DNA of 64,000 nucleotides, from the NCBI GenBank assembly GCA_963748625.1, contig CAVVJT010000004.1, positions 704,001 to 768,000 of the forward strand, in the 5' to 3' direction. This document shows, in pieces, positions 28,891-49,172 of the stretch. Within the stretch, counting starts at the first letter, position 1. Each line of letters starts with the position of its first letter. The DNA comes from an uncultured Chloroflexia bacterium (GTDB taxonomy: Bacteria > Chloroflexota > Limnocylindria > Limnocylindrales > CSP1-4). Under the pieces are notes generated by a model. It saw only the letters and a list, made by a program, of their open reading frames with translations, was not told the origin of the DNA and ran no database searches. Made by a program: the position numbers and the translations under genes.

Positions 28891-28897
28891 CGTGGGC

Positions 28898-29140
28898 CTA
28901 CCGGGTCTTCTCGACGACGATCTCGTCATAGCCGTCGCGGGTGAAGGTGCCGACCATGGTGTGTCCGGCCTTGCCGACCCACTTGGGGATGTCGGTCTTG
29001 CTGCCCTTGTCGGTGGTCAGGACGGCAAGGACGTCGCCGACCTCGGCCTCCTTCATGCCCCGGATGAGCTCCATCAGGGGACCCGGGCAGAAGCTGCCGC
29101 GGGCGTCGATGGTGGTGGTGATGGTCGGGATCTCAGTCAT
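28898..29140 (-). CDS. tusA: TusA/SirA-family sulfur carrier
   Basis: IDARGSFCPGP. Confidence 0.88.
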   Translation of the reverse strand: MTEIPTITTTIDARGSFCPGPLMELIRGMKEAEVGDVLAVLTTDKGSKTDIPKWVGKAGHTMVGTFTRDGYDEIVVEKTR

Positions 29141-29210
29141 CAGAAGTACTCCGGAAAGTGGGACGCCGGGGCGGCGGCGGGACGCTTGGATGCCGCCAGC
29201 CCCGAGGGGA

Positions 29211-29741
29211 TCAGATGAAGAGCGGGGCGTAGCCCTCGGCGACGAAGCCGAGGTACGTGGCTGCGCCGACCGAAGGGCTCATGCCGTCGATCAGGTCGTC
29301 GGCGGTGATACCGAACATGTCCATGGTCATCTGGCAAGGGATGAACTCGACGCCCAGCATGGCCGCCATCTCGAGCAGCTCGGCCGGCTTGGAGACGTTG
29401 TACTGCTTGGCGAGCTTGAACATCATCCAGGGCCCCATGCCCAGGAAGTTCATCTTGGAGAGCTTGCGATGCGCAATGCCCGGACGGGACATCATCGCGA
29501 GCATCTTCTGCATCCAGTTGGTGCCGGTGATGCGCTTGCCCGGCTTGACGAACGTCTGGAGGCCCCAGAAGGTCACGAAGACCTTGGTCTCCATGCCCAT
29601 CGCCGCGGCGGTGGAGGCCAGGATCATGGCCGCCCACGTCTTCTCGAGGTCGCCGCTGTAGCAGATGATCGCGAGGCCCTTGGCGCCCGGATGGACGCCG
29701 GCGGTCTCGAGTGCGGACTCAGTCATCGGGTCGCCGCTCAC
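29211..29741 (-). CDS. DsrE/DsrF/DrsH-like (DsrE2-type) sulfur transferase
   Basis: SGDLEK, FVTFWGL, LSKMNFLGMG, PCQMTMDMFG, VGAATYL..LFI. Confidence 0.88.
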   Translation of the reverse strand: MSGDPMTESALETAGVHPGAKGLAIICYSGDLEKTWAAMILASTAAAMGMETKVFVTFWGLQTFVKPGKRITGTNWMQKMLAMMSRPGIAHRKLSKMNFLGMGPWMMFKLAKQYNVSKPAELLEMAAMLGVEFIPCQMTMDMFGITADDLIDGMSPSVGAATYLGFVAEGYAPLFI

Positions 29742-29962
29742 TTCTTGCGCAGGACGAAGCGGTAGACGCCGCCGTCCACGGTCTGCTCGACCATGTCGTT
29801 GCCGGTGGTCTTGGACCAGGCGGCGAAGTCCTTCGTGGACCCCGGATCGGTGGCGAGCACCTCGAGCGTCTGGCCCGAGGTCATCCCCTTGACGGCCTGC
29901 GCCGTCTTGACGATCGGCATCGGGCAGTTGAGCCCGCGTGCGTCGACCTGAACGTCAGCCAT
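29738..29962 (-). CDS. tusA: TusA/SirA-family sulfur carrier (second copy)
   Basis: VDARGLNCPMPIVK, ATDPGS. Confidence 0.9.
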   Translation of the reverse strand: MADVQVDARGLNCPMPIVKTAQAVKGMTSGQTLEVLATDPGSTKDFAAWSKTTGNDMVEQTVDGGVYRFVLRKK

Positions 29963-29978
29963 GAGTTCGGTCCCTTTC

Positions 29979-30392
29979 CTAGATGAAGACGATCTGGCCG
30001 TCGCCGGCATTGAGGTAGAACGCGGTCACGCCCTCGGTCCCGTCCACGAGCGGATCGAGATCCTCCTCCTCGAGCTTGAGGAGGTCCATGGAGAGCGAGC
30101 AGGCCTGGATGTCCACCTCGCCCAGCTCCTTGACCTGGCGCAGGGTCTCGGCCCAGGACGCCTGGCCTTCCTGCGCGAGGTTGTCGACAGCGGCGCGGCC
30201 CTCGGGACCCGCCTCATCGGCCAGCCCGTGGTCCAGGCCGATGGAGGCCTTGGTGAAGGCGCGGAGTCCCCAGTACTGCAGGAAGATGTTGACCTGCTTG
30301 CCCAGCGCAGCTGCCCCGGCGGACATGACGGCGAGGGCCTGGAGCTTGTCGTCCGTGCCTGAGAACACCACGAAGTTGATGGTTTCCGACAT
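29979..30392 (-). CDS. DsrE/DrsH-like protein
   Basis: FSGTDDKL, FLQYWGL, ACSLSMDL; GGAGG RBS. Confidence 0.85.
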   Translation of the reverse strand: MSETINFVVFSGTDDKLQALAVMSAGAAALGKQVNIFLQYWGLRAFTKASIGLDHGLADEAGPEGRAAVDNLAQEGQASWAETLRQVKELGEVDIQACSLSMDLLKLEEEDLDPLVDGTEGVTAFYLNAGDGQIVFI

Positions 30393-30415
30393 GCGTTCCT
30401 CCCGAACAGCGTTGG

Positions 30416-30760
30416 TCACTGGATCTCGATGAGCTCAGCCGCGGTCTGCTCCTGCACGGACAGACGGCCCAGCCGGGTGAGGCGGCGCTGGAGCACGCCG
30501 CGCATGAGCGCGCAGGCGGCGATGACGTCGGTATCGGTGAGCCGGTACCTGACCTCGCGTCCGTCGCGCTCTGCGTCGACGATACCCGCGGCCCGGAGGA
30601 CGGAGAGGTGCTGGGAGACGTTGGGCTGGGGCGCGCCGATCTCCTCGGCGAGCCGGCCCACCTCGCACGGACCCAGTGCCAGGCGGTGGATGATGTCCAG
30701 CCGGCGCGGGTTGGCGAGGGTCTTGAGGACCTCGGCCTGCAGGATCGTGATCTCGTCCAT
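30416..30760 (-). CDS. ArsR/SmtB family regulator (possible persulfide sensor)
   Basis: LKTLANPRRLDII, VSQHLSVLR, RDGREVRYRL; two Cys (GPCEV, AACAL). Confidence 0.9.
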   Translation of the reverse strand: MDEITILQAEVLKTLANPRRLDIIHRLALGPCEVGRLAEEIGAPQPNVSQHLSVLRAAGIVDAERDGREVRYRLTDTDVIAACALMRGVLQRRLTRLGRLSVQEQTAAELIEIQ

Positions 30761-30770
30761 GGGCACAAGC

Positions 30771-30794
30771 ATCAGCATATTCGCAGATGCGCAT
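30771..30794. promoter_or_regulatory. ArsR-type operator (imperfect 24-bp palindrome)
   Basis: atcagcatattcgcagatgcgcat, immediately upstream of the ArsR start. Confidence 0.6.
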
Positions 30795-30839
30795 AAGTGA
30801 GGAAGGTCCCGACCGGACGGGACCGGTCACGATCTGGAC

Positions 30840-30892
30840 GGGACCTGCGGCCCGAGCCGATTGGGCCCGGTTGCGGGCCAGCGGTCCCGCAA
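30840..30892. promoter_or_regulatory. Tandem DosR/DevR-like boxes upstream of the oxidoreductase operon
   Basis: gggacctgcggccc (30840-30853) and ttgcgggccagcggtcccgcaa (30871-30892). Confidence 0.55.
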
Positions 30893-31066
30893 CGTTCCTG
30901 GGGACGTAGGGGGCCGACACGAGCGACGGACTCGCCGCACCGCAACCGTGACCCGGCCCCCACGAACGGGGCCTCCCGGCCATGATCTCCGGCCCGCCGG
31001 GACGTGGCTTTGTACCCTGCCCGCAACCATTCGGCAACGCCATCCTCGGCAGTGGAGGTGCCACTT

Positions 31067-31351
31067 ATGGCCATGTCCGCTCCGCTCACCGAAGGCCAAC
31101 TCCGCCACATCGGTAGCGGGCCAGCCGCGTTCCGACCGATCCTCGTCGCCACCGAACGATGCAAGGGCTGTGCCTTGTGCATCGACGTCTGCCAGCCGGG
31201 AGCACTGGCCCTCGATGCGTCCCACGTGAACGCCATGGGCCACCATCCCGTCCTGCTCATCCACCCTGAAGCCTGCACGAGCTGCGCCAAGTGCGCCCGG
31301 ATGTGTCCGGATGCCGCCCTGTCGGTCTTCGCCCGTCCTCGGGAGGCCTGA
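31067..31351 (+). CDS. 2x[4Fe-4S] ferredoxin, delta subunit of 2-oxoacid:ferredoxin oxidoreductase
   Basis: CKGCALCIDVCQ...CTSCAKCARMCPD; GGAGGTG RBS. Confidence 0.92.
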   Translation: MAMSAPLTEGQLRHIGSGPAAFRPILVATERCKGCALCIDVCQPGALALDASHVNAMGHHPVLLIHPEACTSCAKCARMCPDAALSVFARPREA

Positions 31352-31357
31352 GCACCC

Positions 31358-32545
31358 ATGACCGCCATCGCCCCGTCGGGCGTCGATCGCCCCCACCTCA
31401 TCGCCTCGCCGCCCGGGACCGGCGGCGAGGCGTCCCCCACCCCGACCCGTGTCCTGATGAAGGGCAACGAGGCGATCGCCGAGGCTGCGATCGCCGCGGG
31501 GTGCGACGCCTACTTCGGCTACCCGATCACCCCTCAGGCGGAGCTGCTGGAGTGGATGGCCCGGCGCATGCCCGAGGAGGGCCGCGCCTTCGTCCAGGCC
31601 GAGAGCGAGCTGGGGGCGATCAACATGGCCCTCGGCGCGTCCGCCGCCGGCGCCCGGGTCATGGTCTCGTCATCGAGCCCGGGCATCAGCCTCATGGCCG
31701 AGGGGATGAGCTACATGGCGGGCTCACGCCTGCCGGTCGTGCTGGTCAACATCATGCGCGGAGGCCCGGGCCTCGGGTCCATCGGGGCCGCCCAGTCGGA
31801 CTACCTCCAGGCCACCAAGGGGCACGGACACGGGGACTACCACGTGCCGGTCCTCGCCCCGTCGTCCATCGCCGAGGCGATCGAGTTGGTGCGTGACGCG
31901 TTCATCCTCGCAGAGGGCTACCGCACCCCGGTGATGATCCTCGCTGACGGCATCCTGGGCCAGGCAATGGAACCGGTGGAGCCGGACTTCAAGGGTCTCG
32001 GGAAGACCTTCCCGGACTGGGCGCTCTGCGGGGCCGACGGCCGTGAGCCGCGATCCCTGCGGTCGCTGAACCTGCGCGCTGAGGACCTGGAGCGCCACAA
32101 CGACGAGTTGCAGGCCACCTACCGCGAGATCGAGGCCAGCGAGACCCGCTGGGCCGGCGAGCAGCTCGAGGACGCCGAGGTGGTCATCGTGGCCTACGGC
32201 ACCGCGGCCCGCGTGGCCCGGACCGCCGTGGAGCGGGCTCGGGCCGTGGGTCTCCGGGCCGGGCTGTTCCGGCCGATCACGTTGTGGCCCTTCCCGGCGC
32301 AGGCCCTGTGCGAGGCCGCCGCGGGCGCACGCGGTGTGCTGGCGGTCGAGATGTCGGCGGGCCAGATGGTCGAGGACGTGCGGCTCGCGCTCGACGGCGC
32401 CGTGCCGGTCTTCTTCCACGGCCGCACGGGCGGCATGGTGCCCACCCCGGACGATGTCGTGGCGGCCGCCCGGCGTGCCTGGGCGCGCACGGGGACGCCA
32501 CCCCACGGCGCGGACCTCGGGCAGGTCGGGGAGGTTGAGCGATGA
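31358..32545 (+). CDS. vorB: 2-oxoacid:ferredoxin oxidoreductase alpha subunit (ketoisovalerate oxidoreductase type)
   Basis: [47 protein letters not shown]. Confidence 0.9.
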
Positions 32546-33366
32546 CCGCGCCAGTCGCCAGCGAGACCGAGGGCCGCACGATCTACCGGCGGCCGTCGCT
32601 GCTGTCCAACCCCACCACCTACTGCCCCGGCTGCGGCCATGGCATCGTCCACAGGTTGATCGCGGAGGTGCTCGAGGAGCTCGGCCTCGGCGGCCGGACG
32701 ATCCTCGTCGGCTCGGTCGGCTGCTCCGTCTTCGCCTATGACTTCCTCCGGCTCGACGCCGTCGAATCCCCGCACGGGCGGGCCGCTGCGGTTGCAACGG
32801 GCGTGAAACGCGTCCAGCCCGACAAGATCGTGTTCACCTACCAGGGTGACGGCGACCTCGCCGCCATCGGCACCGCGGAGATCGTCCATGCGGCGGCCCG
32901 CGGCGAGCGGATCACCGTCATCTTCGTGAACAACGGCATCTACGGCATGACCGGCGGCCAGATGGCCCCCACCACCCTGCCGGGCCAGAAGACCACGTCG
33001 AGCCCCAAAGGCCGCGATGTCACAACGGCGGGCTATCCGCTGCCGGTGACCGAGATGCTTTCGCTGCTCATGGGCGTCCAGTACGCCGCACGCACCTCGG
33101 TCTCGGATCCGGTGCACGTCGGGAAGACCAAGGCCGCGATCAAGCGCGCCTTCGAGGTGCAGCAGGAAGGCACCGGGTTCGCGATCGTGGAGGTGCTCTC
33201 CACCTGCCCGGTCGGCTGGGGCATGACCCCGACCGAGGCGATGCACCGCCTCGCGAGCGATGTCATGACGGCCTATGCGACCGGAACGTTCGTGGACCGG
33301 GCCAGGCGCATCGCGCCCGACCTGCCCAAGCCGGGCTCCCCCCGGTCGATCACGGAGGGCTTCTAG
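32542..33366 (+). CDS. 2-oxoacid:ferredoxin oxidoreductase beta (TPP-binding) subunit
   Basis: [31 protein letters not shown]. Confidence 0.92.
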
Positions 33367-33918
33367 ATGGAGTTCTCGACGATCATCGCCGGGTTCGGCG
33401 GCCAGGGGATCCTGTTCGCAGGCAAGGTCCTGGCGGAGGCCGCGCTCCTCGAAGGGCGGGAGGTCCTGTGGATCCCGTCCTACGGGCCTGAGATGCGAGG
33501 CGGGACCGCGTCCTGCACCGTGATCGTGGCCGACCGCCCGATCGGCTCACCGGTCGTGGATCGCGCCGACCATGCGGTGGTCCTCAACCCGCCGTCGATG
33601 GCGAAGTACACGTCGCTCGTCGCGAGAGACGGCTTGCTCGTCGTCAACACCACGCTGATCGAGGCGGAGGCCGGACGGGACGACATCGAGGTTCTCGAAG
33701 TCCCCTGCACGGCGCTTGCGAAGCAGGCCGGCGACGACAAGCTGGTGTCGGTCGTTGCGCTGGGGGCGATGCTCGGTCGACGCCGGTTCGTGGAGCCCGA
33801 GTCGGTCCATGCGGCGCTGGTGCGCCTGCTGGGCACCAAGCGGCCGGAGCTGATCGCCCTGGACGCGGCCGCGTTCGACGCGGGCTACGAGGCGGGGCTC
33901 GAGGTGGTCATCGCCTGA
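33367..33918 (+). CDS. 2-oxoacid:ferredoxin oxidoreductase gamma subunit
   Basis: AGFGGQG, PSYGPEMRGGTA. Confidence 0.92.
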   Translation: MEFSTIIAGFGGQGILFAGKVLAEAALLEGREVLWIPSYGPEMRGGTASCTVIVADRPIGSPVVDRADHAVVLNPPSMAKYTSLVARDGLLVVNTTLIEAEAGRDDIEVLEVPCTALAKQAGDDKLVSVVALGAMLGRRRFVEPESVHAALVRLLGTKRPELIALDAAAFDAGYEAGLEVVIA

Positions 33919-33977
33919 TCGCGGTCCCGGTGCGCAGCGCGACCGCGTGCTCGGGCCAGGCGGGTGCTGGGACGGTC

Positions 33978-34484
33978 TCAGTCGCCCTCGGCGACACCGT
34001 CAACCGGCGCCGGCACGGGTTCGGCTGCCACCGCAGGCCGCGCAACCGGTTCGTCATCGGGTTCGGCCGCGGCTGCCATCGCCCGGATCAGATCTGCGGC
34101 GGCCAGGATTCCGATCGGGCGGGCCGGGTCATCGTCGGCAACCACCACCAGGCGGCTCACGTGATGGCGCTCCATGCGCCGGGCCGCCTGCGTCAGTGGC
34201 TCGCCACGCGTGATCGTGAGGGCCGGACTCGTCATCAGGTTCCGGATGCGGAGGTGGTCGCGGTTCGCCCAGAGGCTCTCGGTCGCACGCGCCCGCAGCA
34301 GGTCGGACTCGCTGACCACCCCGACCAGCAGCCCGGCAGCGTCGACCACCGGCAGGCCCGAGATGTCATGGCGGTCCATCAGCGTCGCCGCGTCCGCGAG
34401 CCCGGCATCAGCGTGGACGACGATCGGCTGGCCAGCCATCAGGTCGCCCACCAGGCGCGGGACATTGAGCGGAACGACGTTCAC
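33978..34484 (-). CDS. CBS-domain protein
   Basis: Two CBS repeats (ISGLPVVD..GVVSESDLL; VSRLVVV). Confidence 0.88.
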   Translation of the reverse strand: MNVVPLNVPRLVGDLMAGQPIVVHADAGLADAATLMDRHDISGLPVVDAAGLLVGVVSESDLLRARATESLWANRDHLRIRNLMTSPALTITRGEPLTQAARRMERHHVSRLVVVADDDPARPIGILAAADLIRAMAAAAEPDDEPVARPAVAAEPVPAPVDGVAEGD

Positions 34485-34566
34485 GCGAGAACCTCCGGGA
34501 CTGCTGCCCGCACAACGGGCGTGCGGTCACCGTGACCGCCACGCCGGTGCAGGGATCGTACGCGCC

Positions 34567-35085
34567 CTAGCCGGCAGCCGCAGGCCCGTGCGAGACGTGG
34601 GTCACGCGCTCCAGTTCGAGGGTGATGGCCTCCTGGAATGCGTGCATGTTGAGCCGGACCGATCGCGAGAGCGGGCGCCCGTACCCGAACCGGCGTCCGC
34701 CGATCCCCACGAAGGTGCCGTCGGGCAGGCCGCCCGCCCGGCGCGCCTTTGCATCCTCCAGGACGGCGTCGATGGGCAGCTCATGCGAAGAGCGTGGTGT
34801 CGGGGTGGTCGTATCGCCGGTCACGTCACACAGCTTCATGGTCACGACGTGTCCGGGAGCGATGCCCATGGCCGCGTCCACGAGGATGCAGATCTCGCCC
34901 GAGGGCACATCGAGGAGGTCCTCCGCCCGGAGGTGCCCGCACCGCCGGACCTCGAGCCGCTCCAGCATGGCCGCGGGCAGGGACGGCAGGAGCGTCGCCA
35001 CCGCGCTGAGCGCGGCGCCGTCATCACCCCTGTCCGCGTTGCCACAGACCAGGAGTCGCACCGAGGGCGGTGCCAGCTGGTTCAT
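34567..35085 (-). CDS. Hydrogenase maturation protease (HycI/HybD family)
   Basis: LLVCGNADRGDDG, ILVDAA, SSHEL, FGYGRPLS; GGAGG RBS. Confidence 0.82.
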   Translation of the reverse strand: MNQLAPPSVRLLVCGNADRGDDGAALSAVATLLPSLPAAMLERLEVRRCGHLRAEDLLDVPSGEICILVDAAMGIAPGHVVTMKLCDVTGDTTTPTPRSSHELPIDAVLEDAKARRAGGLPDGTFVGIGGRRFGYGRPLSRSVRLNMHAFQEAITLELERVTHVSHGPAAAG

Positions 35086-35510
35086 ACGTTCGCCTCCACA
35101 ACGGATGTCGGGACGCACGACACCAGCGGATCCCCCGAGGGGGGCTGCATACCCATGCTCGCCCGTGGCCGACGGGCCAGCGAGTGCCGTCCGTCGCCGG
35201 GGCGGCGTGCCGGTCGGCCGGGGGTGCCTGCCGGTCGGCCCGCGTGGCAGGGGCCGGCAGCCCCTCAGCGTGAGCCCAACAGTCCGTCAACGGGGTCCCG
35301 GAGTGCCGCAGCGGGGCCGGGCAGCATCTCAACGGGGGCCAGGAAGCCCCCGCCGATGACCAGGGCCCTGCCGGAGGCGCTCGAGGCGCGCGCGGAGGTC
35401 CGCCTCGCCAACCGGTCCCTCGGGACGCTCCGCACGGATGACGCCTGGTCGCTGGCCGATCGTCCGAAAGGGGTGGGCGATACGCCCGCCCATGGACGCC
35501 GGGACCGACA

Positions 35511-35924
35511 TCACGGTCCGCAGGGCTCGCCTCCGGCCGGGTTCGGGGCGGGGAACGACGGTGCCTGGTCCGATGCCCAGATCGCGAGGCGGCCACAGAC
35601 CATGTCGACCAGGCCGAGGGCGCCGGTGCACGAGGTCGCATCACCCTGGGTGGCGCAGGTCGGCGCAGCATCGAGCTGCATCGAGACGAGCACCCGGCCC
35701 GCCGGGGAGACCGCCTCCACCCGCCATGGGAACGCGACGCCACGCAGGGGGACCGCGCCGCTCTCTCCGGCTGGCGCCATGCCTGCGGGCGTGCCGTTCA
35801 CGCGGATGACCACGTCAAGTGTCGAGCCGTTCTCGTAGACGATGTCCGCGCCCTCCTGCACGCCGGGCAGGATCGTGCAGGCAGCCACGAGGGCCGCCGC
35901 GACGACCAGCGCCAGGACACGCAT
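35511..35924 (-). CDS. Hypothetical lipoprotein
   Basis: MRVLALVVAAALVAAC lipobox; several further Cys residues. Confidence 0.7.
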   Translation of the reverse strand: MRVLALVVAAALVAACTILPGVQEGADIVYENGSTLDVVIRVNGTPAGMAPAGESGAVPLRGVAFPWRVEAVSPAGRVLVSMQLDAAPTCATQGDATSCTGALGLVDMVCGRLAIWASDQAPSFPAPNPAGGEPCGP

Positions 35925-36013
35925 CGCCCGACCTCCACCCCAAGTCGAACCCGGGAATCCGAGGACCGGCCGCAGCATGCGCCGGGCCGGCCCTCGACAG
36001 CAAGCGGTGAAGG

Positions 36014-37351
36014 TCAGTGAGGGCCGGCCTTCGCCTCCTGCGCGCGCTTGATGATCGGGGCGAGCGCCTCCGCCAGGTTGCCCGAGACCGGATCGAGCTC
36101 GTACCGGACGCGCACGATCGGCTTCGACACCTTGAGCACGCGCGTCAGGTCGATGGGCGTGGCAGCCAGGATCACATCGGCCGGGACGGCGTCGAGAGCC
36201 GCTTCCAGCTCGTGGACCTGCTTCTCGCCATAGCCCATGGCCGGAAGCAGGGCTTGGAGCTTCGGGTACTTCGCCAGCGTCGCCGCGAGCTCGCCCGATG
36301 CATAGGTCCGCGGATCCACGACCTCGGCGCCGAAGCGCTGCGCGGCCACGATGCCCGCCCCGTACGTCATGCCCCCATGGGTGAGCGTCGGGCCGTCCTC
36401 CACCACGACGACGCGCTTGCCGGCGATATCGCCGCCCTCGAGCACCAGGGACGAGCGGGCCTCGACGATCATGGCGCCCGGGTTGACCTCGGCGATGGAT
36501 GCGCGGACCTCGGCCAGCGCCTCCGCCGTGGCCGAGTCCACCTTGTTGATGCAGACGACGTCCGCCGAGCGCAGGTTCGCCTCACCCGGGTGATACCGGA
36601 GCTCGTGGCCGGGCCGCAACGGATCGACCACCACGATGGCAAGGTCGGGCGTGTAGAACGGCAGGTCGTTGTTGCCGCCGTCCCAGATCACCACGTCGGC
36701 CTCGGCCTCGGCGGCGCGCAGGATGTCCTCGTAGTCAACGCCCGCGAAGACCAGGCGGCCCGCGTCGAGGTGCGGCTCGTACTCCTCGCGCTCCTCGATC
36801 GTGGTCTGGTGACGGTCCAGGTCGGCGTACGTCTCGTAACGCTGGCAGCGCTGCGCAACGAGATCGCCATACGGCATCGGGTGGCGGACGACCGCGACCG
36901 TCAGGCCCGCGGCCTCGAGGGCGGAGGCGACGTACCGGCTTGTCTGGCTCTTGCCGCAGCCGGTGCGCACGGCGCACACGGACACCACCGGGCGGGTGCT
37001 CGCGAGCATCGTGGCTGCCGGACCGAGGAGCTTGAAGTCAGCGCCTGCCGCCATGGCGCGGCTGGCTGCGTGCATGACCTGCTCGTGGCTCACGTCGCTG
37101 TACGCGAAGACGACGGTGTCCACGGCCAGGTCGCGGACCAGCTGCTCCAGCTCCGACTCCGGCCGGATGGGGATCCCCTCGGGGTAGCGCTCGCCCGCGA
37201 GCTCGGGCGGATAGCGCCGGTCGGCGATGCCGGGGATCTGCGTCGCCGTGAAGGCGACGACCTCGACGGTGGGGTCCGCGCGATACACCACGTTGAAGTC
37301 GTGGAAATCGCGGCCGGCGGCACCCATGATCAGCACGCGTTCGGTGCCCAT
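36014..37351 (-). CDS. P-loop ATPase of the cyclic 2,3-diphosphoglycerate synthetase-like family (arginine synthetase ArcE-like)
   Basis: GAAGRDFH, AFTATQIP, RTGCGKSQT, RHPMPYG, TIEEREEYEPH, WDGGNND, EDGPTLTHGGM, PAMGY. Confidence 0.8.
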   Translation of the reverse strand: MGTERVLIMGAAGRDFHDFNVVYRADPTVEVVAFTATQIPGIADRRYPPELAGERYPEGIPIRPESELEQLVRDLAVDTVVFAYSDVSHEQVMHAASRAMAAGADFKLLGPAATMLASTRPVVSVCAVRTGCGKSQTSRYVASALEAAGLTVAVVRHPMPYGDLVAQRCQRYETYADLDRHQTTIEEREEYEPHLDAGRLVFAGVDYEDILRAAEAEADVVIWDGGNNDLPFYTPDLAIVVVDPLRPGHELRYHPGEANLRSADVVCINKVDSATAEALAEVRASIAEVNPGAMIVEARSSLVLEGGDIAGKRVVVVEDGPTLTHGGMTYGAGIVAAQRFGAEVVDPRTYASGELAATLAKYPKLQALLPAMGYGEKQVHELEAALDAVPADVILAATPIDLTRVLKVSKPIVRVRYELDPVSGNLAEALAPIIKRAQEAKAGPH

Positions 37352-37648
37352 GATCTGCCTTTCCGGAGGCGCAGCACGTCACCCGCGCCGGTCCGCTAGG
37401 GACCAGCAGGCGGGCGCGGCAGGGACAGCCTCCGCATCGTGAGGAGCATGTCGGATGGCCTCCGGCCCGGTCGTCGGCCGGGATGCCCCAGCCATGGTGC
37501 CGCTGGTCCCATGAACCCGGTCCGATCGGCACTCACCGCTGGGACATCGCGTCGGTGACGATTCACGGTGAGGTGGGTGCCGGAGGGGACGCCCGGCATC
37601 CACCCGAACCTTCGCCCTCGCTTCGGCGGGGGCGTTCGTGTGTCCGGG

Positions 37649-38935
37649 CTACAGCTCGTGATGCTGGCGCGCCTGTTCCGTGAGCCAGTCACGATGGTTC
37701 GGGTGGGCGACCGCGATGAGCGCCTTCGCGCGCTCCCGCAGGCTCTTGCCCCAGAGCTCCGCGACGCCGTACTCCGTCACCACCGTGCGGACGTGGGCGC
37801 GGGTGGTCACGACCCCCGCCCCCTCCCTGGGCGCCGGGGTGATGCGCGAGATCTCATCGTCCCTTCCGGCGGCTGACGGCAGGGCGATGATGGCGCGGCC
37901 TTCGGGCGCCAGGGCCGCCCCGCGGATGAAGTCCATCTGGCCGCCCACGCCGGAGTACATCCGGTAGCCGATCGAGTCCGCCACGACCTGGCCCGTGAGA
38001 TCTACCTCGATCGCGGAGTTGATGGCCGTCATGGCGCGGAATGATCGGATGACGTGGGTGTCATTGGTGAAGTCGACGGCTCGCATCTCGACCATCGGGT
38101 TGTCGTCCACGAAGTCGTACAGGCGCCGGGTGCCCATCATGAAGGCGGCCACGAGCTTGCCCCGGTTGCGCGCCTTGGCCATGCCCGTGATGACGCCGGA
38201 CTCGACCAGGTCCACCACGGCGTCGGTGAACATCTCCGTGTGCACGCCCAGGTCCTTCTTGCCACCGAGGAACTCGGCTGTGGCGGCCGGGATCGCCCCG
38301 ATCCCCAGCTGGAGCGTGGCGCCATCGGGGACGAGGTCCGCGATGAACGACCCGATCTGGCGCTCGATCGGCCCGATCTCCGGACGCGCGTGCTCGAAGA
38401 TCGGCTGGTCCACCTCGCAGGCGAGGTCGATCTCGTCAACATGGATGAAGGACTCGCCGAGCGTCCGCGGCATCTGCGGGTTGAACTGGACGATCACGGT
38501 CTTCGCCGCCGTGATCGCGGCCCGCATCGCCTCCACTGACACGCCAAGCGAGCAGTAGCCGTGGGCGTCGGGCGGGGTGGCATGCGCAAACACCGCGTCG
38601 AGCGGCAGGGCGCCCTGCAGGAACAACTCCGGTACGTCGGAGAGGAAGACGGGCACGAAGTCGGCGCGGCCCTCGTTGACGGCCTTGCGCGCGTTGGGGC
38701 CGATGAACAGCGCCCGGTGGCGGAAGTGGCCAGCCATCTCCGGGGCGAGGTGCGGGCCGGGACCCTCGGTGTGGAGGTGGATGACGCCGACGTCGGTCAA
38801 CTCCGACGCCCGGGCGACGAGCGCCTCGAGCAGGACCTCGGGGACGCCCGACGCGCACTGGACGTAGACCTGGTCCCGGGACTTGATCCCCGCGACCGCT
38901 TCTTCCGGGCTCACGATACGCATGGGACGATTCAC
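37649..38935 (-). CDS. Acetyl-CoA hydrolase/transferase (4-hydroxybutyrate CoA-transferase-like)
   Basis: LQLGIGAIP, GVHTEMF, YSGVGGQMDF, VVTEYG, IAVAHP. Confidence 0.92.
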   Translation of the reverse strand: MNRPMRIVSPEEAVAGIKSRDQVYVQCASGVPEVLLEALVARASELTDVGVIHLHTEGPGPHLAPEMAGHFRHRALFIGPNARKAVNEGRADFVPVFLSDVPELFLQGALPLDAVFAHATPPDAHGYCSLGVSVEAMRAAITAAKTVIVQFNPQMPRTLGESFIHVDEIDLACEVDQPIFEHARPEIGPIERQIGSFIADLVPDGATLQLGIGAIPAATAEFLGGKKDLGVHTEMFTDAVVDLVESGVITGMAKARNRGKLVAAFMMGTRRLYDFVDDNPMVEMRAVDFTNDTHVIRSFRAMTAINSAIEVDLTGQVVADSIGYRMYSGVGGQMDFIRGAALAPEGRAIIALPSAAGRDDEISRITPAPREGAGVVTTRAHVRTVVTEYGVAELWGKSLRERAKALIAVAHPNHRDWLTEQARQHHEL

Positions 38936-39025
38936 GCATGCGTCAACGCCGAATGGGGGCGCCGGATGGCATGCGCGGCGGGACCGGTGCGCCCGTAGGT
39001 TTCGGGACGGTTGCGGCCCGAGCGC

Positions 39026-39067
39026 TCAGTCCCCAGCCCTGTCCAACGCGAACGACGGGTCCGGTCC
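39026..39067 (-). repeat. Diverged copy of the last 14 codons of the nitroreductase gene
   Basis: Encodes GPDPSFALDRAGD*, versus GSGPSFALDRAAD* at 39280-39321. Confidence 0.75.
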
Positions 39068-39197
39068 TGCATGTCGGCCCATGTGGGGGGCGAATTGGGA
39101 TGGCGCACGCACGCGCTGCGCGGCAAACCCCGACATTCGGACGCACACCCCGCACGGCAGGCGTCCAAACGGCTCCCACGTGGGGCGGGGTCAGAGA

Positions 39198-39271
39198 CGG
39201 CGCGTCGGGGGCCACGCGTTTGGGAACGAGCGGGCGGCGCGTCGGGGGCCACGCGTTTGGGGCCGAGCGGG
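39198..39271. repeat. 37-bp tandem duplication
   Basis: cggcgcgtcgggggccacgcgtttggg(aa/gc)cgagcggg x2. Confidence 0.9.
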
Positions 39272-39279
39272 CGGGCCGG

Positions 39280-39618
39280 TCAGTCTGCGGCCCTGTCCAG
39301 GGCGAACGACGGGCCCGACCCGAGTCCCTCGGCAGGGGTCCCGTACTTGACGATCAGCTCCCGGACCGCCGCTGCGTGGTCTGGCCCGGAGACCGGCCGC
39401 GCCATGGCGGCGAACGAGAGGTCCGCGATCGTCACGCGGCAGGCCGGGTCGGCAAGGAGGTTGCGGGCCCAGTGGGCGGTTGACGATCCCGCTGAGATCA
39501 GCAGGGACCCGTCCGCGCGCTCGACGAACCCGACGCTCGCAACGGCAGGCTGACCCGTCACCCGGCCGCGGGTCTCCAGGCGCAGCACGCGACCGCGTGC
39601 GACAAGATCCTCCTCCAC
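39280..39618 (-). CDS. Deazaflavin (F420)-dependent nitroreductase family protein
   Basis: LETRGRVTG, WARNLLADP split-barrel motifs. Confidence 0.75.
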   Translation of the reverse strand: MEEDLVARGRVLRLETRGRVTGQPAVASVGFVERADGSLLISAGSSTAHWARNLLADPACRVTIADLSFAAMARPVSGPDHAAAVRELIVKYGTPAEGLGSGPSFALDRAAD

Positions 39619-39654
39619 GTCGTCAGCGCCCGGAGCCGGTAGCGCGAGGGTGGC

Positions 39655-40326
39655 TTATCCGCCGCCGCGGTCAAGCCGGTGCTTGGCGACGAACGCTGCA
39701 GCCTGGGCGCGACGCTCGAGGTTCAGCTTGGAGAGGATGGAGCTGACGTAGTTCTTGACCGTCTTGTCGGAGAGGAAGACCTCCGACGCGATCTCCTTGT
39801 TCGTCTTGCCCTCGGCGACCAGCAGCAGGATGCGCTGCTCCTGTGCCGTGAGCTGCGCCATCTCGTCGGTGTAGGCACCGGTCGCGATGCGCCGGACGCG
39901 CTCCAGCACCTTCTCGGTGACCGCGGGATCGAGGAGGGACTCGCCGCGCCCGACGGACTCGAGCGCAGCCACGAGATCGCGCGCCCGGATCTGCTTGAGC
40001 AGGTAGCCTGAGGCCCCGGCCACGATGGCGGACAGCACCGCCTCCTCGTCCGGGTACGACGTGAGCATCACCACCCGCGTCGCCGGCAGCTCCGCGCGGA
40101 TCTCGCGGCACGCCTCGATCCCCGAGCCATCCGGCAGACGGACGTCCATGATGACGATGTCCGGCTGGAAGCGACGGGCCTGCTCGATGGACTCGGCCGC
40201 GGTCCCGGCCTCCGCGACGACCTGGAAGCCCTCGCGGCGATCGAGCAGGGCCACGAGTCCCTGCCGCACGACCTCATGGTCGTCGACCACGAGCAGCCGC
40301 AGCGGTCGCGAATTGGGATCAGTCAC
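39655..40326 (-). CDS. NarL/LuxR response regulator, DosR/DevR-like
   Basis: VDDHEVVRQGL, DVRLPDGSG, GASGYLLK, TNKEIA..LSDKTVKNYVSSILSKL. Confidence 0.92.
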   Translation of the reverse strand: MTDPNSRPLRLLVVDDHEVVRQGLVALLDRREGFQVVAEAGTAAESIEQARRFQPDIVIMDVRLPDGSGIEACREIRAELPATRVVMLTSYPDEEAVLSAIVAGASGYLLKQIRARDLVAALESVGRGESLLDPAVTEKVLERVRRIATGAYTDEMAQLTAQEQRILLLVAEGKTNKEIASEVFLSDKTVKNYVSSILSKLNLERRAQAAAFVAKHRLDRGGG

Positions 40327-40328
40327 GA

Positions 40329-41954
40329 TCAGCTCTCTCCGGTGGCGGCGATGGGACGCTCGAAGGTCGCGGCACCCGTGAGCGCCGGGATGCGGACGAT
40401 GATACGCGTGCCGGGGCCATCGGGGCGCTCCACCGCGAATGTCCCTCCCATACCGACGGAGCGGTCACGCATGTTGGTCAGGCCCTGGTGGCGGCCGAAG
40501 GCATCGGGGCCCGCGACAGTGAGCGGGTCGAAGCCGCGTCCGTTGTCCTCGATGCACAGCACCAGCTGGTCATCGTCGTCGGCAAGGATCAGCGCTGTTC
40601 GCGTGGCACCGGAGTGCCGGGCGACATTCGAGAGCGCCTCGCGCGCGATGAACAGCAGGTCGGATCGCTGGTCCGGAGGCAGCGCCCGCATCCGGTCCGC
40701 GCCGCCCTCGAGATCCACCTCGAGGTCGATCACGGCGTGCATGCCCAACTCCTCGCCGAGGCGGGCGAGGGCCTCCACCGGGTCCTCGGGGCCGCCCAGG
40801 GCCGGCCGCAGGCGGAGGATGTAGGACCGGATGTCCGCGATCACGAGGTTCAGGGCATCGATCGCCCGGTCGACCCTGGCGATGGCGTCGGCGCGACCGT
40901 CCTCATCCTCCACGAGCTCCGGCACGTCCTCGAGCGCGAGGCCCACGGCGTAGATGCTCTGGATGATCCCGTCGTGGAGGTCCTTGCCGATCCGCTCCCG
41001 CTCCTCGACCACCGCCATTCGCTGCACCTGGTCGTGCAGGCGCGCGTTCTCGATGGCGATGCCCGCGTGGACCGCGAACATCTCGACCATCCGCTCGTCC
41101 TCGGTGGTGAACGGCTCGTCGCCGGGCTTGTCGGCGAGATACAGGTTGCCCACCGACCGTCCCTTGACCAGCACGGGTGCGCCCAGGAAGGACGTCATCA
41201 CCGGGTGGTGCGGGGGGAAACCGTAGCTGCCCGGATGCTGGGTGATGTCCTCGGAGCGGACGACCTGGGCCTCACGGATGATCAGGCCGAGCAGACCGTG
41301 CCCCTTGGGGACTGGGCCGATCGCCGCCCGATCCACAGCCGAGATCCCACTCGTGATGAAACGCTCGATCCGGCCCCGGCCATCGGCGATACCGAGCGCC
41401 GCGAACCGGGCGCCGACAAGGTCGCGCACGCGGTCCACGATCAGGCCGAGGACCCGGTCGATGTCCAGTTCGGCCGCGATGGCCCGGGTGGCCGACTCGA
41501 GTGCCACCAGGCGCTCGGCATGGCCGTGGGCCTCCGCCCCGGACCAGGCCGCCTCCACAACGAACTCCAGGCCGCGCGCAAGCTGCTCCGCACCGGCGTC
41601 GTCCGCAGCGTCCACGTGCACTGTGCCCAGCGTCGCGTGGCCGGCGTGCGCGCCGAGCGCGAAGCGGCGATAGTCCGCGAGGACGTCCGCAGCGGGCAGG
41701 GGCGCGAGGGTTCCGGCCGCCACCTGGAGCGCCTCGAGCGGCGGGGCGGATACGGCGAGGACCGCACCGTCGACACCCACCACGCGGAGTGTCCCCTCGA
41801 GGGCAGCCTGCAGCCCGGCGAGGTGTTCAGGCGTGCGTCCGGCCTGCCAGCGCTGCAGGGCCTCGAGCATCGCCACCATCGGGAAGGGACCCACACCAGC
41901 CGCTGCCGCAGCCGGTGCGGCAGGGCTCGTGACAGGTCGGCTGGAAGCGGTCAT
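40329..41954 (-). CDS. GAF-domain HisKA_3 sensor kinase, DosS/DosT-like
   Basis: GAF with HPGSYGFPPHHPVMTSFLGAP (heme-GAF signature as in DosS), RIGKDLHDGIIQ, DNGRGF, GLTNMRDR. Confidence 0.9.
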   Translation of the reverse strand: MTASSRPVTSPAAPAAAAAGVGPFPMVAMLEALQRWQAGRTPEHLAGLQAALEGTLRVVGVDGAVLAVSAPPLEALQVAAGTLAPLPAADVLADYRRFALGAHAGHATLGTVHVDAADDAGAEQLARGLEFVVEAAWSGAEAHGHAERLVALESATRAIAAELDIDRVLGLIVDRVRDLVGARFAALGIADGRGRIERFITSGISAVDRAAIGPVPKGHGLLGLIIREAQVVRSEDITQHPGSYGFPPHHPVMTSFLGAPVLVKGRSVGNLYLADKPGDEPFTTEDERMVEMFAVHAGIAIENARLHDQVQRMAVVEERERIGKDLHDGIIQSIYAVGLALEDVPELVEDEDGRADAIARVDRAIDALNLVIADIRSYILRLRPALGGPEDPVEALARLGEELGMHAVIDLEVDLEGGADRMRALPPDQRSDLLFIAREALSNVARHSGATRTALILADDDDQLVLCIEDNGRGFDPLTVAGPDAFGRHQGLTNMRDRSVGMGGTFAVERPDGPGTRIIVRIPALTGAATFERPIAATGES

Positions 41955-42009
41955 CGCCCGCAGCCTACCAGCCAGCGCCAGAGGACGGGGCACCGGGCAC
42001 AGCGCCTTC

Positions 42010-42023
42010 GGGCCATTGGTCAC
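42010..42023. promoter_or_regulatory. DosR-like box in the divergent kinase/oxidase promoter
   Basis: gggccattggtcac. Confidence 0.55.
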
Positions 42024-42100
42024 TTCGCAGGGTACGCTTGTGCCCGGAACATTCCCCAATCCAACGTCGCGAGATCCTCGCCCACACGACAGGAGTGCCC

Positions 42101-43504
42101 GTGCCCGTGGAGCCGACCGTCTCCCTCACGCCCGCGTCCCCGGCCGAGTCCGAGCAGGACGGCGCCACCGCCACATCCCCGCTGAGCCGCCGCGGGTTCT
42201 TGCGCGTCGCCGGCCTGACCGGTGTCGCTGCGGCCGCTGCCGCCTGCGCCCCGGCCGCCGCCCCGGCCTGGAGCTTCGGTGCCCCGGCGAGCGGTGGGGC
42301 CGCCACCGCGGTTCCGGCGTCGGTCGCCCCGTCCGTCGCACCGTCGGTCGCACCGTCGGTCGCCCCGTCCGTCGCACCGTCGGTCGCACCGTCGGTCGCA
42401 CCGTCGGCTGACCCGAACATGCCGGTCGGCTGGACCGAGCACGACATCAACGCCCGCAACGTCGTCCGCCGCTACGTGGGCAACCTCGCCCCGGCGCTCA
42501 AGGGCATCTTCGACCCGGTTGACCCCGCCATCTTCGAGAAGCTTGCGGAGATCCTCGGTGCCGCGGACGGCTACCCGGAGCTCTCCCAGCCGCCGGCCTT
42601 CGTCCAGGTCCCGCAGTTGATCCTCAACGACGCACTCACGCCGCTCACCCCCACCATGGATGGCGACGTGAAAGTGTTCGAGCTCACGGTCGACGAGTTC
42701 ATGTGGCCCATCGACGAGCTGAAGGCCCCGGTCGCGGCACTCGGTTACAACGCCCAGTGGCCCGGCCCCACGATCACGGTCACCGAGGGTGACAAGCTCC
42801 GGTTCAACTTCACCAACAACCTCAAGGAGACCACGGGCGTCCACTTCCACGGTGTGGAGTTCGCCAACTTCTTCGAGGACGGCGTGCCGTTCGTCACGCA
42901 GCTGCCGATCATCCCCGGCGAGACGTACCCGTACACCTTCGATGCCAGCCGTGACGGCTCCCTGATGTACCACTCGCACCACAACGCGACCGACCAGGTC
43001 GGCCGCGGCCTCCTCGGAGGCTTCGTGGTCAACGCGAAGACGCCCAGCGACCGCTGGGACAGCGAGTACGTCTGGGTCTCCAACGACGCCCTCGGTGGCT
43101 TCACCATCAACGGCCACGGCTTCCCCGCCGTCGTCCCGGTCCTCGCGTACATCGGCGAGCGGATCCTGGTCCGCTTCATGAACGAGGGCTCGATGATGCA
43201 TCCGTGGCACCTCCACGGCTTCAAGATGCGCGTCGTCGCCCGGGACGGCTACCCGCTCGGCGGGGCCGAGTTCGACTGCGACACCCTGGGCGTCAACCCG
43301 GGTGAGCGCTTCGATGTGATCATCACGGCCGACCGGCCGGGCATCTGGGCGTTCCACTGCCACATCCTCCCCCACGTCGAGGGAGCGGACGGCATGTTCG
43401 GCATGGTGAGCACGCTGATGGTGCTGCCCACCAAGGCGGACAAGGACGCGGTGCTCAAGGCCGTCATCGACCAGTACAACCCCGCGCCCATCGTCACGGG
43501 GTAA
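42101..43504 (+). CDS. Tat-exported two-domain multicopper oxidase (lipoprotein)
   Basis: SRRGFL Tat motif and AAAC lipobox; HFHG, YHSH, HPWHLHG, HCHILPH...M. Confidence 0.9.
   Translation: MPVEPTVSLTPASPAESEQDGATATSPLSRRGFLRVAGLTGVAAAAAACAPAAAPAWSFGAPASGGAATAVPASVAPSVAPSVAPSVAPSVAPSVAPSVAPSADPNMPVGWTEHDINARNVVRRYVGNLAPALKGIFDPVDPAIFEKLAEILGAADGYPELSQPPAFVQVPQLILNDALTPLTPTMDGDVKVFELTVDEFMWPIDELKAPVAALGYNAQWPGPTITVTEGDKLRFNFTNNLKETTGVHFHGVEFANFFEDGVPFVTQLPIIPGETYPYTFDASRDGSLMYHSHHNATDQVGRGLLGGFVVNAKTPSDRWDSEYVWVSNDALGGFTINGHGFPAVVPVLAYIGERILVRFMNEGSMMHPWHLHGFKMRVVARDGYPLGGAEFDCDTLGVNPGERFDVIITADRPGIWAFHCHILPHVEGADGMFGMVSTLMVLPTKADKDAVLKAVIDQYNPAPIVTG
42323..42406 (+). repeat. 12-bp in-frame tandem repeat (VAPS x7)
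   Basis: gtcgc(c/a)ccgtc(c/g) x7 in an A-B-B-A-B-B-B pattern. Confidence 0.95.
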
Positions 43505-43509
43505 CGGTT

Positions 43510-44016
43510 GTGCCGACCCGGCCGGACACCAGTGCCGTGCCGCGCCAGGCACTGGCGAGTCCGCCCGCGTCCGGCGACCCGCGCAAGCTCCTGCTGGCCA
43601 CGGATCTCTCCGAGGCCAGCCAGGCGGCCACGGACGAGGCATTCGAGCTTGCGAAGCGGCTCGAGGCGTCGCTGCTCGTGGTCTCGGTGATCGACCCGGG
43701 AGCGCTGCAGTTGCCTGGAGGCCGGTTCCGCGCCCGTGTCGACCAGGTCCGGGAGCGGCGTGAGCAGCAGGCGCAGGTCCTCGTGGAGCGTGGCCGCGCC
43801 GAGGGCGTGGACGTCTCGTTCCTCGTGTGGACTGGCGACCCGGGCGACATGATCGTCGAGGCGGCGGAGGCGGAGCGCGTGGACATGGTGCTCGTGGGCA
43901 GCCACGGGCGCGGTGCGGTCGGCCGGTTCTTCCTGGGCAGCGTGTCCGAGCACGTCGTCCGGCACGCCCCCTGCCCGGTCCTCGTGGTCCGGCCGAGGGA
44001 CCCGCTCAGCAACTAG
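43510..44016 (+). CDS. Universal stress protein
   Basis: LLLATDLS, LVGSHGRG, LGSVSEHVVRHAPCPVLVV. Confidence 0.93.
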   Translation: MPTRPDTSAVPRQALASPPASGDPRKLLLATDLSEASQAATDEAFELAKRLEASLLVVSVIDPGALQLPGGRFRARVDQVRERREQQAQVLVERGRAEGVDVSFLVWTGDPGDMIVEAAEAERVDMVLVGSHGRGAVGRFFLGSVSEHVVRHAPCPVLVVRPRDPLSN

Positions 44017-49133: not shown

Positions 49134-49157
49134 GGGATCTCCTCGCATGCGATGAAC

Positions 49158-49172
49158 GCATAGATGTTATGC
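49158..49172. promoter_or_regulatory. Palindromic operator candidate upstream of the aminotransferase
   Basis: GCATA-gatgt-TATGC in an AT-rich patch. Confidence 0.45.

Follow-up and report, generated by a model that had tools for sequence, protein, structure and literature searches.

The 64-kb window analyzed here (64,000 nucleotides of contig CAVVJT010000004.1, assembly GCA_963748625.1) comes from a Limnocylindrales-like Chloroflexota genome and probably harbors a two-component switch of the DevS/DevR (DosS/DosR, OsdK/OsdR) type. In the proposed mechanism, the second GAF domain of a sensor histidine kinase would bind heme, and autophosphorylation of the kinase would change with a diatomic ligand or with the redox state, the candidate signals being O2, NO, CO, or H2S. 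The kinase would phosphorylate an adjacent response regulator at the aspartate aligned to D54 of DevR, and the regulator dimer would bind tandem Dev-type boxes near -39/-62 of its own, putatively leaderless operon, which encodes the kinase, the regulator, and an F420H2-dependent reductase. Binding is expected to result in positive autoregulation, a direction that we infer, and the same boxes would also activate a divergent operon for a laccase and a universal stress protein (USP). A second tandem pair (~-36/-80) would activate a sulfide-oxidation operon encoding an ArsR-family protein and a sulfide:quinone reductase (SQR), and this operon would additionally be gated by its own ArsR repressor via an ArsR-type operator. 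The scheme builds on what is observed, namely the homology of the proteins, the conservation of the DNA-reading residues, and the conservation and arrangement of the boxes.

A search with the kinase as query gave 93 relatives; the best 80 of these were retained as loci (named L001 etc.). Among these 80, the 17 closest loci (L001-L016 and L022), with best tblastn segments 67-81% identical to the kinase, are metagenome-assembled genomes (MAGs) labelled Chloroflexia, Chloroflexota, or Candidatus Limnocylindrales; the more distant single-GAF relatives come from many phyla, Actinomycetes included. The initial annotation, which was made from the sequence of the window, had assumed a presumably aerobic high-GC bacterium. 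Because the closest relatives are Chloroflexota (Limnocylindrales-like) MAGs, the frame of a high-GC aerobic actinobacterium is wrong in detail.

The response regulator (39655-40326, minus strand) is a DevR/DosR-like member of the NarL family with REC and GerE domains in Pfam. Its best solved relative is DevR (3c3w, E 1.2e-56, 194.8 bits), ahead of VraR (164 bits) and NarL (123 bits). The recognition helix, KTVKNYVS, is identical in the regulator and DevR, whereas VraR, the next best match, has KTVKTH in place of KTVKNY. The residues aligned to DevR Q153, K168, K179, K182, N183, R196, R197, and D54 are all conserved. K179, K182, and N183 are described as DNA-reading residues and Q153, K168, R196, and R197 as interface residues (PMC13486717), while D54 is reported as the phospho-acceptor of DevR (PMC3029386); in the regulator, the latter position lies in a conserved DVRLPDG. 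The regulator is 92-99% identical across the 17 close loci, and its start (40326) abuts the stop of the cognate kinase (40329). Kinase and regulator are thus assigned by homology to the DevS/DevR (DosS/DosR) type, and the annotation of a DosR-like regulator next to a DosS-like kinase holds, as DevR is the closest match to the regulator and the DNA-reading residues are conserved.

The kinase (40329-41954, minus strand; 541 aa) is composed of an N-terminal GAF-like domain, a heme-type GAF (~residues 185-335), HisKA_3, and HATPase_c (Pfam for the latter three). The five best Protein Data Bank matches of the heme-type GAF, which span residues 219-367 of the long open reading frame (ORF), are DevS/DosT GAF-A chains (E 4.5e-36 to 7.4e-35). 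The residues aligned to the heme-ligand histidine (HHPVM vs YHPPM) and the distal tyrosine (NLYLADK vs TLYLTDK) are kept, at positions that we take to be H149 and Y171 in DevS numbering. The peptide FPPHHPVM, which holds the aligned heme-ligand histidine, is among the most conserved stretches used in finding the 93 relatives.

The divergent spacer between the kinase and the laccase contains the primary Dev-type box (42007-42026, core 42010-42023, GGGCCATTGGTCAC). This box is kept in 13/13 aligned orthologous spacers, with a mean column identity of 0.89 vs 0.67 for the entire spacer. It scores at least 15 in 16/16 close loci with upstream sequence when assessed with a position weight matrix (PWM) that was trained on kinase-promoter boxes only and for which the chance expectation came from Markov simulations. 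The box that had been annotated at 42010 is therefore conserved by both measures. The orthologous consensus, WAGGGACCWWWGGCCCGAA, reads as a hybrid of GGGAC and GGGCC half-sites, which match the Mycobacterium tuberculosis core and the Streptomyces OsdR consensus AGGGCCGATCGGCCCT, respectively. The third G and the following C of the half-site (G5 and C7 of the 18-bp box) are reported to be essential (PMC3177182), and both are kept in both halves in all 13 orthologues. The same PWM also locates boxes beside DevR-like regulators in Nocardia, Acidimicrobiia, and other loci.

A secondary, degenerate box (41987-42000) lies 23 bp from the primary box, with its center at ~-39 relative to the kinase promoter. 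In L001 it reads exactly GGGACCGGCGTCCC, and in 8/15 loci it has at most one mismatch to the broadened, Mycobacterium/Streptomyces-wide core GGGMC-N4-GKCCC. Further downstream, a putative -10 hexamer, TAGGCT (41962-41967, minus strand), is found 7 nt before the kinase ATG (41954), which points to a leaderless transcript. The TAGGCT-N7-ATG arrangement is present in 11/14 loci examined, as well as in the window, and the primary box and the -10/ATG block (0.88-0.91) are the most conserved parts of the spacer. If transcription starts at the kinase ATG, the boxes center near -39 (secondary) and -62 (primary). The CoA-transferase and ArsR promoters described below resemble this promoter, and leaderless transcripts may be common in this clade.

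The last gene of the kinase-regulator operon encodes an F420H2-dependent reductase of the DDN family (39280-39618, minus strand; PF04075, TIGR00026), which directly follows the regulator in 15 close loci. An F420 nitroreductase typical of DosR regulons had been annotated here; the F420 reductase is indeed present, yet it is of the DDN family. The nitroreductases of the M. tuberculosis regulon are of the Acg type.

On the other side of the spacer, a two-domain multicopper oxidase of the laccase type with a twin-arginine (TAT) signal (~42101-43504, plus strand; Cu-oxidase_3/_2) is transcribed divergently from the kinase. Among solved structures, the two-domain laccase 2zwn is the closest (E 1e-40). 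An assignment as a copper nitrite reductase, which would have pointed to NO, was rejected (~1e-14 vs 1e-40 for two-domain laccases). The protein has a long N-terminal extension after the twin-arginine signal, in which tandem repeats (42290-42410, plus strand) encode (A/V)PSV-type peptides before the cupredoxin domains. The USP gene (43510-44016, plus strand; PF00582, E 1.3e-39) begins 6 bp after the laccase gene, and the two probably form one operon; the pair adjoins the kinase in 13 close loci. A USP had been listed among the genes typical of DosR regulons, and here it does lie in a box-bearing operon, as the laccase-USP operon faces the boxes of the kinase spacer.

The second box-bearing operon (27691-30760, minus strand; Pfam, NCBIfam) comprises six genes in the order ArsR (Rv0081-like)-DsrE-like-TusA-DsrE2-like-TusA-type III SQR and is divergent from the 2-oxoacid:ferredoxin oxidoreductase operon. 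In L015, L019, L020, and L024, 3-9 kb separate it from the kinase-regulator pair. The solved protein closest to the ArsR protein is Rv0081 (E 4e-13). A role as a BigR/SqrR persulfide sensor was considered and is not supported, since the BigR model gives 62.5 bits vs a cut-off of 155 and the first BigR cysteine aligns to a histidine.

The proximal Dev-type box of this operon (30794-30813, core 30797-30810) has a PWM score of 17.0 and is the sole other match of at least 14 in the window; the matches expected per 64 kb are 0.017 at scores of at least 17 and 0.117 at scores of at least 14. Its position is kept in L015, L024, L019, and L020, with PWM scores of 17.8, 14.5, 9.9, and 6.8, respectively. 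The distal box (30840-30853, GGGACCTGCGGCCC) is an exact GGGMC-N4-GKCCC match, the core of which is identical in L015 and carries one mismatch in L019 and L020 and two in L024. The tandem of proximal and distal boxes is thus kept in 5/5 genomes (the window and these four loci). The layout shared by the five is distal box, 22-23 bp, proximal box, ArsR-type palindrome, TATNNN hexamer, and conserved ATG (30760). The ArsR-type operator-like palindrome (30775-30796, minus strand, TCATGCGCAC-GT-TCGCATAT) overlaps the TATGCT -10 element and is kept directly downstream of the proximal box in all five. The window carries a 21-bp tandem duplication (30805-30845, GGTCCCGACCGGACGGGACC / GGTCACGATCTGGACGGGACC) between these conserved boxes, because of which the box distance grows from 22 bp in L015 to 43 bp; the distal box is thereby placed two helical turns further out, with the phase kept.

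The pair is situated at ~-36/-80 of the ArsR-SQR operon, and the oxidoreductase start is 220-270 bp away, so that the pair does not obviously serve the oxidoreductase. By position, both boxes are instead assigned to the divergent ArsR-SQR operon. Of what the initial annotation had proposed for 30797 and 30840, the boxes themselves prove conserved, whereas the link to the 2-oxoacid oxidoreductase gives way to the ArsR-SQR operon.

Several points weigh against the reading of a DevS/DevR-type switch, and the first two concern the sensor. In DevS, Glu87 and His89 are part of a distal hydrogen-bond network with a role in ligand discrimination; the kinase has Gly and Ala at the corresponding positions. 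The top match of its GAF is 2y8h, an E87G mutant chain. Furthermore, the heme-type GAF is the second domain and adjoins HisKA_3 (DHp), unlike the GAF-A(heme)-GAF-B-HisKA_3-HATPase order of DevS. The preceding GAF-like domain (~residues 20-160, ~150 residues) is divergent: no Pfam match at E <= 5 is found in the N-terminal 188 residues of the kinase, and in a fold search with its AlphaFold2 model (pLDDT 82.8; helix-helix-strand-strand-helix-strand-strand-long-helix) GAF domains are the only matches, all of them weak (E >= 6e-3, TM ~0.3). Because neither the GAF-A/GAF-B order nor E87/H89 is kept, the kinase is classified, by comparison of the proteins, as a DevS-like variant. The annotation of a DosS-like GAF kinase thus stands with respect to GAF-A homology and the aligned His/Tyr pair and does not extend to the domain order or the E87/H89 equivalents.

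The Gly/Ala substitution and the domain order are what would be expected of a DevS look-alike that does not sense O2 via heme, with a GAF that binds another ligand or a heme tuned to NO, CO, or sulfide. If so, "hypoxia regulon" would be the wrong label even with a DosR-like wiring. In the same direction, one of the box-bearing operons encodes sulfide oxidation, and M. tuberculosis DosS is reported to bind H2S via its ferric heme (PMC9062744). This alternative is possible but less likely, as the aligned proximal-ligand histidine and distal tyrosine are kept, the overall similarity to GAF-A is high, and a USP together with an O2-consuming laccase is equally compatible with O2 sensing. More speculative is the specific proposal that the DevS-like heme kinase is a sensor of sulfide, or of sulfide and low O2, which would drive the Rv0081-like ArsR protein and the DsrE/TusA/SQR genes via Dev-type boxes.

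Further points concern the boxes of the DevS/DevR-type switch. The exact motif GGGAC-N4-GTCCC occurs nowhere in the 64-kb window. An approximate match is present at each of the eight annotated coordinates, with one mismatch at 30840 and 30875, two at 30797, 34497, 37497, 42010, and 54924, and three at 34517. Matches with up to two mismatches are not enriched window-wide (70 vs 102.8 +/- 10.1 in shuffles). In the window itself, the primary box of the kinase promoter has a weakened half-site, GTGAC, and the column identity of the secondary box (0.68) is background-like (0.67). The transcription starts used above are deduced from -10-like hexamers only.

These window-wide counts, which are at or below expectation, and the mismatches in each listed site would suit an origin of all boxes as chance GC-rich palindromes in a 71% G+C genome. 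The intergenic DNA behaves differently: between 29.7 and 56.6 kb (2,083 bp), 10 matches with up to two mismatches are found vs 3.77 +/- 1.90 in dinucleotide shuffles, a count reached in 5/1000 of the latter. The motif also ranks first in this intergenic DNA among 80 composition-matched 5-N4-5 palindromes (mean 3.55, sd 1.83, next best 7). The broadened core GGGMC-N4-GKCCC has four exact matches in 64 kb vs 2.28 expected and is likewise not enriched window-wide; two of the four (30840 and 30875) lie in one 288-bp spacer. Enrichment over background is thus seen in local intergenic DNA and not over the whole window. Together with the second PWM match, expected 0.017 times per window, and the position-specific conservation in 13-16 genomes for 42010 and in five for 30797/30840, this makes chance a very improbable explanation of the full set. 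Chance is contradicted for 42010, 30797, and 30840, and it is the best reading for 34497, 34517, and 54925. Three of the eight listed sites (42010, 30797, and 30840) are accordingly classified, by alignment, as genuine Dev-type boxes that are conserved across the phylogeny, apparently in a tandem layout close to the promoter that resembles the one described for M. tuberculosis (PMC3177182).

Two departures from the mycobacterial pattern also count against the DevS/DevR-type switch. The spacing of the tandem boxes is 22-23 bp, or 43 bp in the ArsR promoter of the window, vs 21 bp in M. tuberculosis. In addition, the 30797 half-site GTGAG carries a G at the C position called essential in PMC3177182. 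The boxes in the ArsR/oxidoreductase spacer (IG1) could belong to the operator of the ArsR protein itself. In that case, 30797 and 30840 would be the operator of the adjacent ArsR repressor or of another local factor, and the DevR-like regulator would control its own spacer alone. The off-rule half-site fits such an operator, as does the fact that the proximal box abuts the conserved ArsR-type palindrome and the -10 element. Autoregulation is common among ArsR-family proteins. Nonetheless, this explanation appears unlikely: a PWM built from kinase boxes picks the 30797 site as the sole other strong match in 64 kb, the distal box is an exact GGGMC-N4-GKCCC match that is identical in L015, the 22-23 bp tandem layout mirrors that of the kinase promoter, and the separate palindrome TCATGCGCAC-GT-TCGCATAT is already a complete ArsR-like operator.

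A third box in the same spacer (30875-30888), which lies in a TTGCGGG...CCCGCAA palindrome, is an exact GGGMC-N4-GKCCC match and window-specific. It had been annotated as a regulatory site; however, it is absent from L015, and in L009, which is the one further locus that spans the spacer, the segment cannot be aligned. Three copies of GTTGCGGG(C/A) are found in this spacer (30870-30893 and 31019-31027), two of which form the 22-bp palindrome, while the third abuts a conserved block (31004-31028). A further factor for the oxidoreductase operon may bind at these copies. The word GTTGCGGGC was rejected as a shared motif, with 55 matches vs 38.3 +/- 6.3 expected, mostly in coding DNA; the three copies in IG1 are its only cluster.

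The initial annotation had proposed a far wider scope for the boxes, in which one DosR-like regulon covering 30.8-44 kb and beyond switches on a Thermococcus-like peptide/2-oxoacid fermentation at low O2. The genes of the fermentation type are present (2-oxoacid:ferredoxin oxidoreductase, AOR, and aminotransferases; Pfam, NCBIfam). The intergenic enrichment (10 vs 3.77; rank 1/80) speaks for such a regulon, and so does the gene order, as the sequence aldehyde dehydrogenase (ALDH)-aminotransferase-CoA-transferase A/B-USP-laccase-kinase-regulator-DDN-CoA-transferase-cDPGS-like is the same in at least 12 close loci (cDPGS, cyclic-2,3-diphosphoglycerate synthetase). The genes from the kinase to the CBS pair are co-directional, so that read-through is possible. 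Still, the wide regulon is doubtful on the evidence of the individual promoters, which carry conserved control elements other than Dev boxes. One more point on the negative side of the balance for the DevS/DevR-type switch is that the oxidoreductase promoter is comparable in only three genomes, and the oxidoreductase and CBS promoters in three to four.

The oxidoreductase (31067-33918, plus strand; Pfam/NCBIfam) has four subunits in the order delta, alpha, beta, and gamma, and its alpha subunit belongs to the VorB-type subfamily NF005507 (499 bits). The conserved block upstream of it (31004-31028) has box PWM scores of -2.4 to 1.4, which is in the range of random DNA. The boxes annotated at 34497 and 34517, near the CBS pair (33978-34484, minus strand; family search), are not conserved in L015, L009, and L010. 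The box at 54925 fares no better, as only 1/5 carboxypeptidase-upstream regions has any match with at most one mismatch.

The box at 37497 is inside a conserved RNA-like leader (37352-37648, minus strand) upstream of the cDPGS-family gene. A ~270-nt block of this leader is kept in 12 aligned loci, and its box-like words are present in 15/15 loci. The leader forms a 14-bp hairpin (37572-37605) with an invariant loop and two compensatory changes, plus further helices. Overall, 95.3% of the cells are paired, and nine pairs show double changes vs 4.3 +/- 1.6 in shuffles, a number reached in 1/500 shuffles; slid controls give 1-6. An Rfam scan of the window returned no matches at gathering thresholds. 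Scr5676, the best model in a permissive Rfam scan of 37300-37700, was rejected (17.4 bits, E 0.57). The region is therefore put forward as a candidate new cis-regulatory leader or riboswitch.

The CoA-transferase (37649-38923, minus strand) starts at ATG 38923 (MRIVSPEE), and its promoter region spans 38912-38971 (minus strand). The -10-like hexamer 6-7 nt upstream of the start is TAGACT in most loci and TGAATC in the window, which suggests a leaderless transcript. Upstream of the hexamer, two words, GGGCGnTCCGG and TGCCATCCGGC, are conserved in 14 aligned sequences of this promoter; they are not Dev boxes, and a different regulator may bind there. From the F420 reductase to the CoA-transferase, the spacer measures ~356 bp in the window vs ~90-140 bp in relatives, and it carries two copies of a 27-bp direct repeat (39198-39261). 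The aminotransferase promoter (49157-49190, minus strand; conserved GTG start at 49133) has a near-palindromic, operator-like TATKCA-N3-TGCATA, which immediately follows a TAGACT/TATKCT hexamer in each of the 13 aligned sequences. Such an arrangement points to a repressor dedicated to the operon of the aminotransferase and CoA-transferase A/B. For this operon, upstream Dev boxes were considered and rejected, because matches with at most one mismatch occur in 8/13 loci, but none is consistent in the alignment and none is found in the window.

The gene at 34567-35085 (minus strand), which resembles a hydrogenase maturation protease (TIGR00072, 52.7 bits), is an orphan in the window. In L001, L004, L007, L010, and L016, it directly follows the gene of a NiFe hydrogenase large subunit that ends in a DPCxxCxxH motif. 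In these relatives, the cDPGS-like gene and the protease gene flank the hydrogenase, which is found downstream of the kinase-regulator pair at a distance of a few kb, and in L001 (15801-21143) group-3b-type subunits (FeS, NAD-binding, and small subunit) are encoded upstream of the large subunit. The window (35086-35510 region), L015, and L009 are without hydrogenase genes, and gene content thus indicates that the hydrogenase was lost in these three, with the maturation-protease-like gene alone being kept. The hydrogenase also speaks for the wide regulon: in L001, L004, and L007 it is preceded by a positionally conserved half-perfect box, TTCGGGACGAACGGCAG, and in Mycobacterium smegmatis the Hyd3 cluster adjoins the devR cluster and both are reported to be up at low O2 (PMC2799521). 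However, the TTCGGGACGAACGGCAG site scores 4.2-7.3, the 90th-95th percentile of random windows, and the window has no hydrogenase.

With respect to a Thermococcus-like pathway, no ADP-forming acyl-CoA synthetase domain was found among the 33 ORFs scanned in 26-58 kb, where CoA-transferases are present instead. In all, conserved Dev boxes were not found in the fermentation promoters, the oxidoreductase promoter being compared in three genomes, and conserved control elements of another kind are carried by the oxidoreductase, the two CoA-transferases, the aminotransferase, AOR, and the CBS and protease genes. Because the fermentation genes carry other control elements, what is left of the claimed oxygen-sensing switch to peptide fermentation is the conserved gene neighborhood. 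The oxidoreductase, CoA-transferase, aminotransferase, and AOR are therefore best regarded as conserved neighbors and not as demonstrable members of the regulon.

Gene calls were based on third-position G+C and on family searches (Pfam, NCBIfam), as the G+C content of the window (66-74%) fills ORF lists with shadows. Every gene named in the initial annotation is present, including the USP, CBS, F420 reductase, CoA-transferase, and protease genes. The supposed ArcE-like ATPase also exists as a gene (36014-37351, minus strand), although the protein is a cDPGS/CobW-like family member. The laccase and the six-gene sulfide operon were both missing from that inventory. A lipoprotein-like ORF (35511-35978, minus strand) precedes the cDPGS-like gene along the window. 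Beyond the USP gene are those for an FG-GAP protein, CoA-transferase A/B, a class III aminotransferase, a second GAF kinase, and an aldehyde dehydrogenase, followed still further along by a ThiS-like protein, AOR, and an M14 carboxypeptidase. The second GAF-HisKA-HATPase kinase (49228-51060, minus strand) lies between the aldehyde dehydrogenase and the aminotransferase and appears to be inserted; no counterpart was detected by tblastn in any fetched locus, several close loci having an uninspected gap of >1 kb between the aldehyde dehydrogenase and the aminotransferase.

The DevS/DevR-type system of the window shares several features with the DosS/DosT-DosR system of M. tuberculosis. In both, the kinase has a heme-type GAF together with HisKA_3 and HATPase domains, the NarL-type regulator has the same recognition helix, and a palindromic GGGAC-type box precedes the operon that encodes the regulator. 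Near -40/-62, the boxes of the window may likewise form a tandem of a primary and a weak secondary box. A USP and an Rv0081-like ArsR regulator are also among the products of the box-bearing operons. As with Rv0081, the ArsR protein is encoded by the first gene of an operon preceded by Dev-type boxes, the similarity between the two being moderate. The Rv0081 operon encodes a formate-hydrogenlyase-like complex; in contrast, the operon here is devoted to DsrE/TusA/SQR sulfur trafficking. Rv0081, an ArsR-family hub regulator, is described as a DosR-regulon member (PMC6177252). For M. tuberculosis promoters, a conserved primary and a poorly conserved secondary box are reported at -42.5/-63.5 (PMC3177182), with a position of -43.5 also being given (PMC13486717, PMC3177182). 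Unlike M. tuberculosis, the organism belongs to the phylum Chloroflexota and has a single kinase at the locus, in which the heme-type GAF comes second, after a divergent GAF-like domain, and the E87/H89 equivalents are not kept. Other differences are the mixed GGGAC/GGGCC half-sites, the 22-23 bp box spacing, the DDN type of the F420 reductase, and the presence of a two-domain laccase and an SQR sulfide operon among the box-bearing operons.

The OsdK/OsdR system of Streptomyces coelicolor is similar in its consensus AGGGCCGATCGGCCCT with GGGCC/GGCCC half-sites, in the box upstream of the regulator's own gene, and in the USP genes nearby, as reported in PMC5069765. OsdR sites mostly have a GC-rich spacer, whereas both the spacer and the flanks of the primary box are A/T here, as in the M. 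tuberculosis consensus. The OsdR targets reported in the same source, nitrate reductase and developmental genes, differ. The third system, M. smegmatis devR/Hyd3 as described in PMC2799521, is paralleled by the NiFe hydrogenase near the kinase-regulator pair in L001, L004, L007, L010, and L016. In contrast, the window, L015, and L009 have no hydrogenase, and the site upstream of the relatives' hydrogenase is weak.

DosR-type dormancy/hypoxia regulons have so far been worked out in Actinobacteria, and no description of such a regulon in Chloroflexota was found in full-text literature searches. Gerasimova et al. are said to have treated mycobacterial dormancy regulons by comparative genomics in 2011. 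In a widespread soil and freshwater clade of Chloroflexota, the sensor, the DNA-reading helix, and the box with its apparently tandem promoter architecture are conserved. With the sulfide-oxidation and laccase-USP operons among the box-bearing ones, the locus yields a concrete, testable small regulon for uncultured organisms. The idea of a hypoxic switch to peptide fermentation is tempered, since the fermentation genes are neighbors with controls of their own. As a lineage of its own, the clade could further be used to ask what signal DevS-type heme sensors actually respond to. If the sulfide-sensor reading were true, heme-H2S binding, so far described for M. tuberculosis DosS alone, would gain a physiological output, and the DosR circuit with its Rv0081-type second-tier regulator would predate or cross the divide between Actinobacteria and Chloroflexota.

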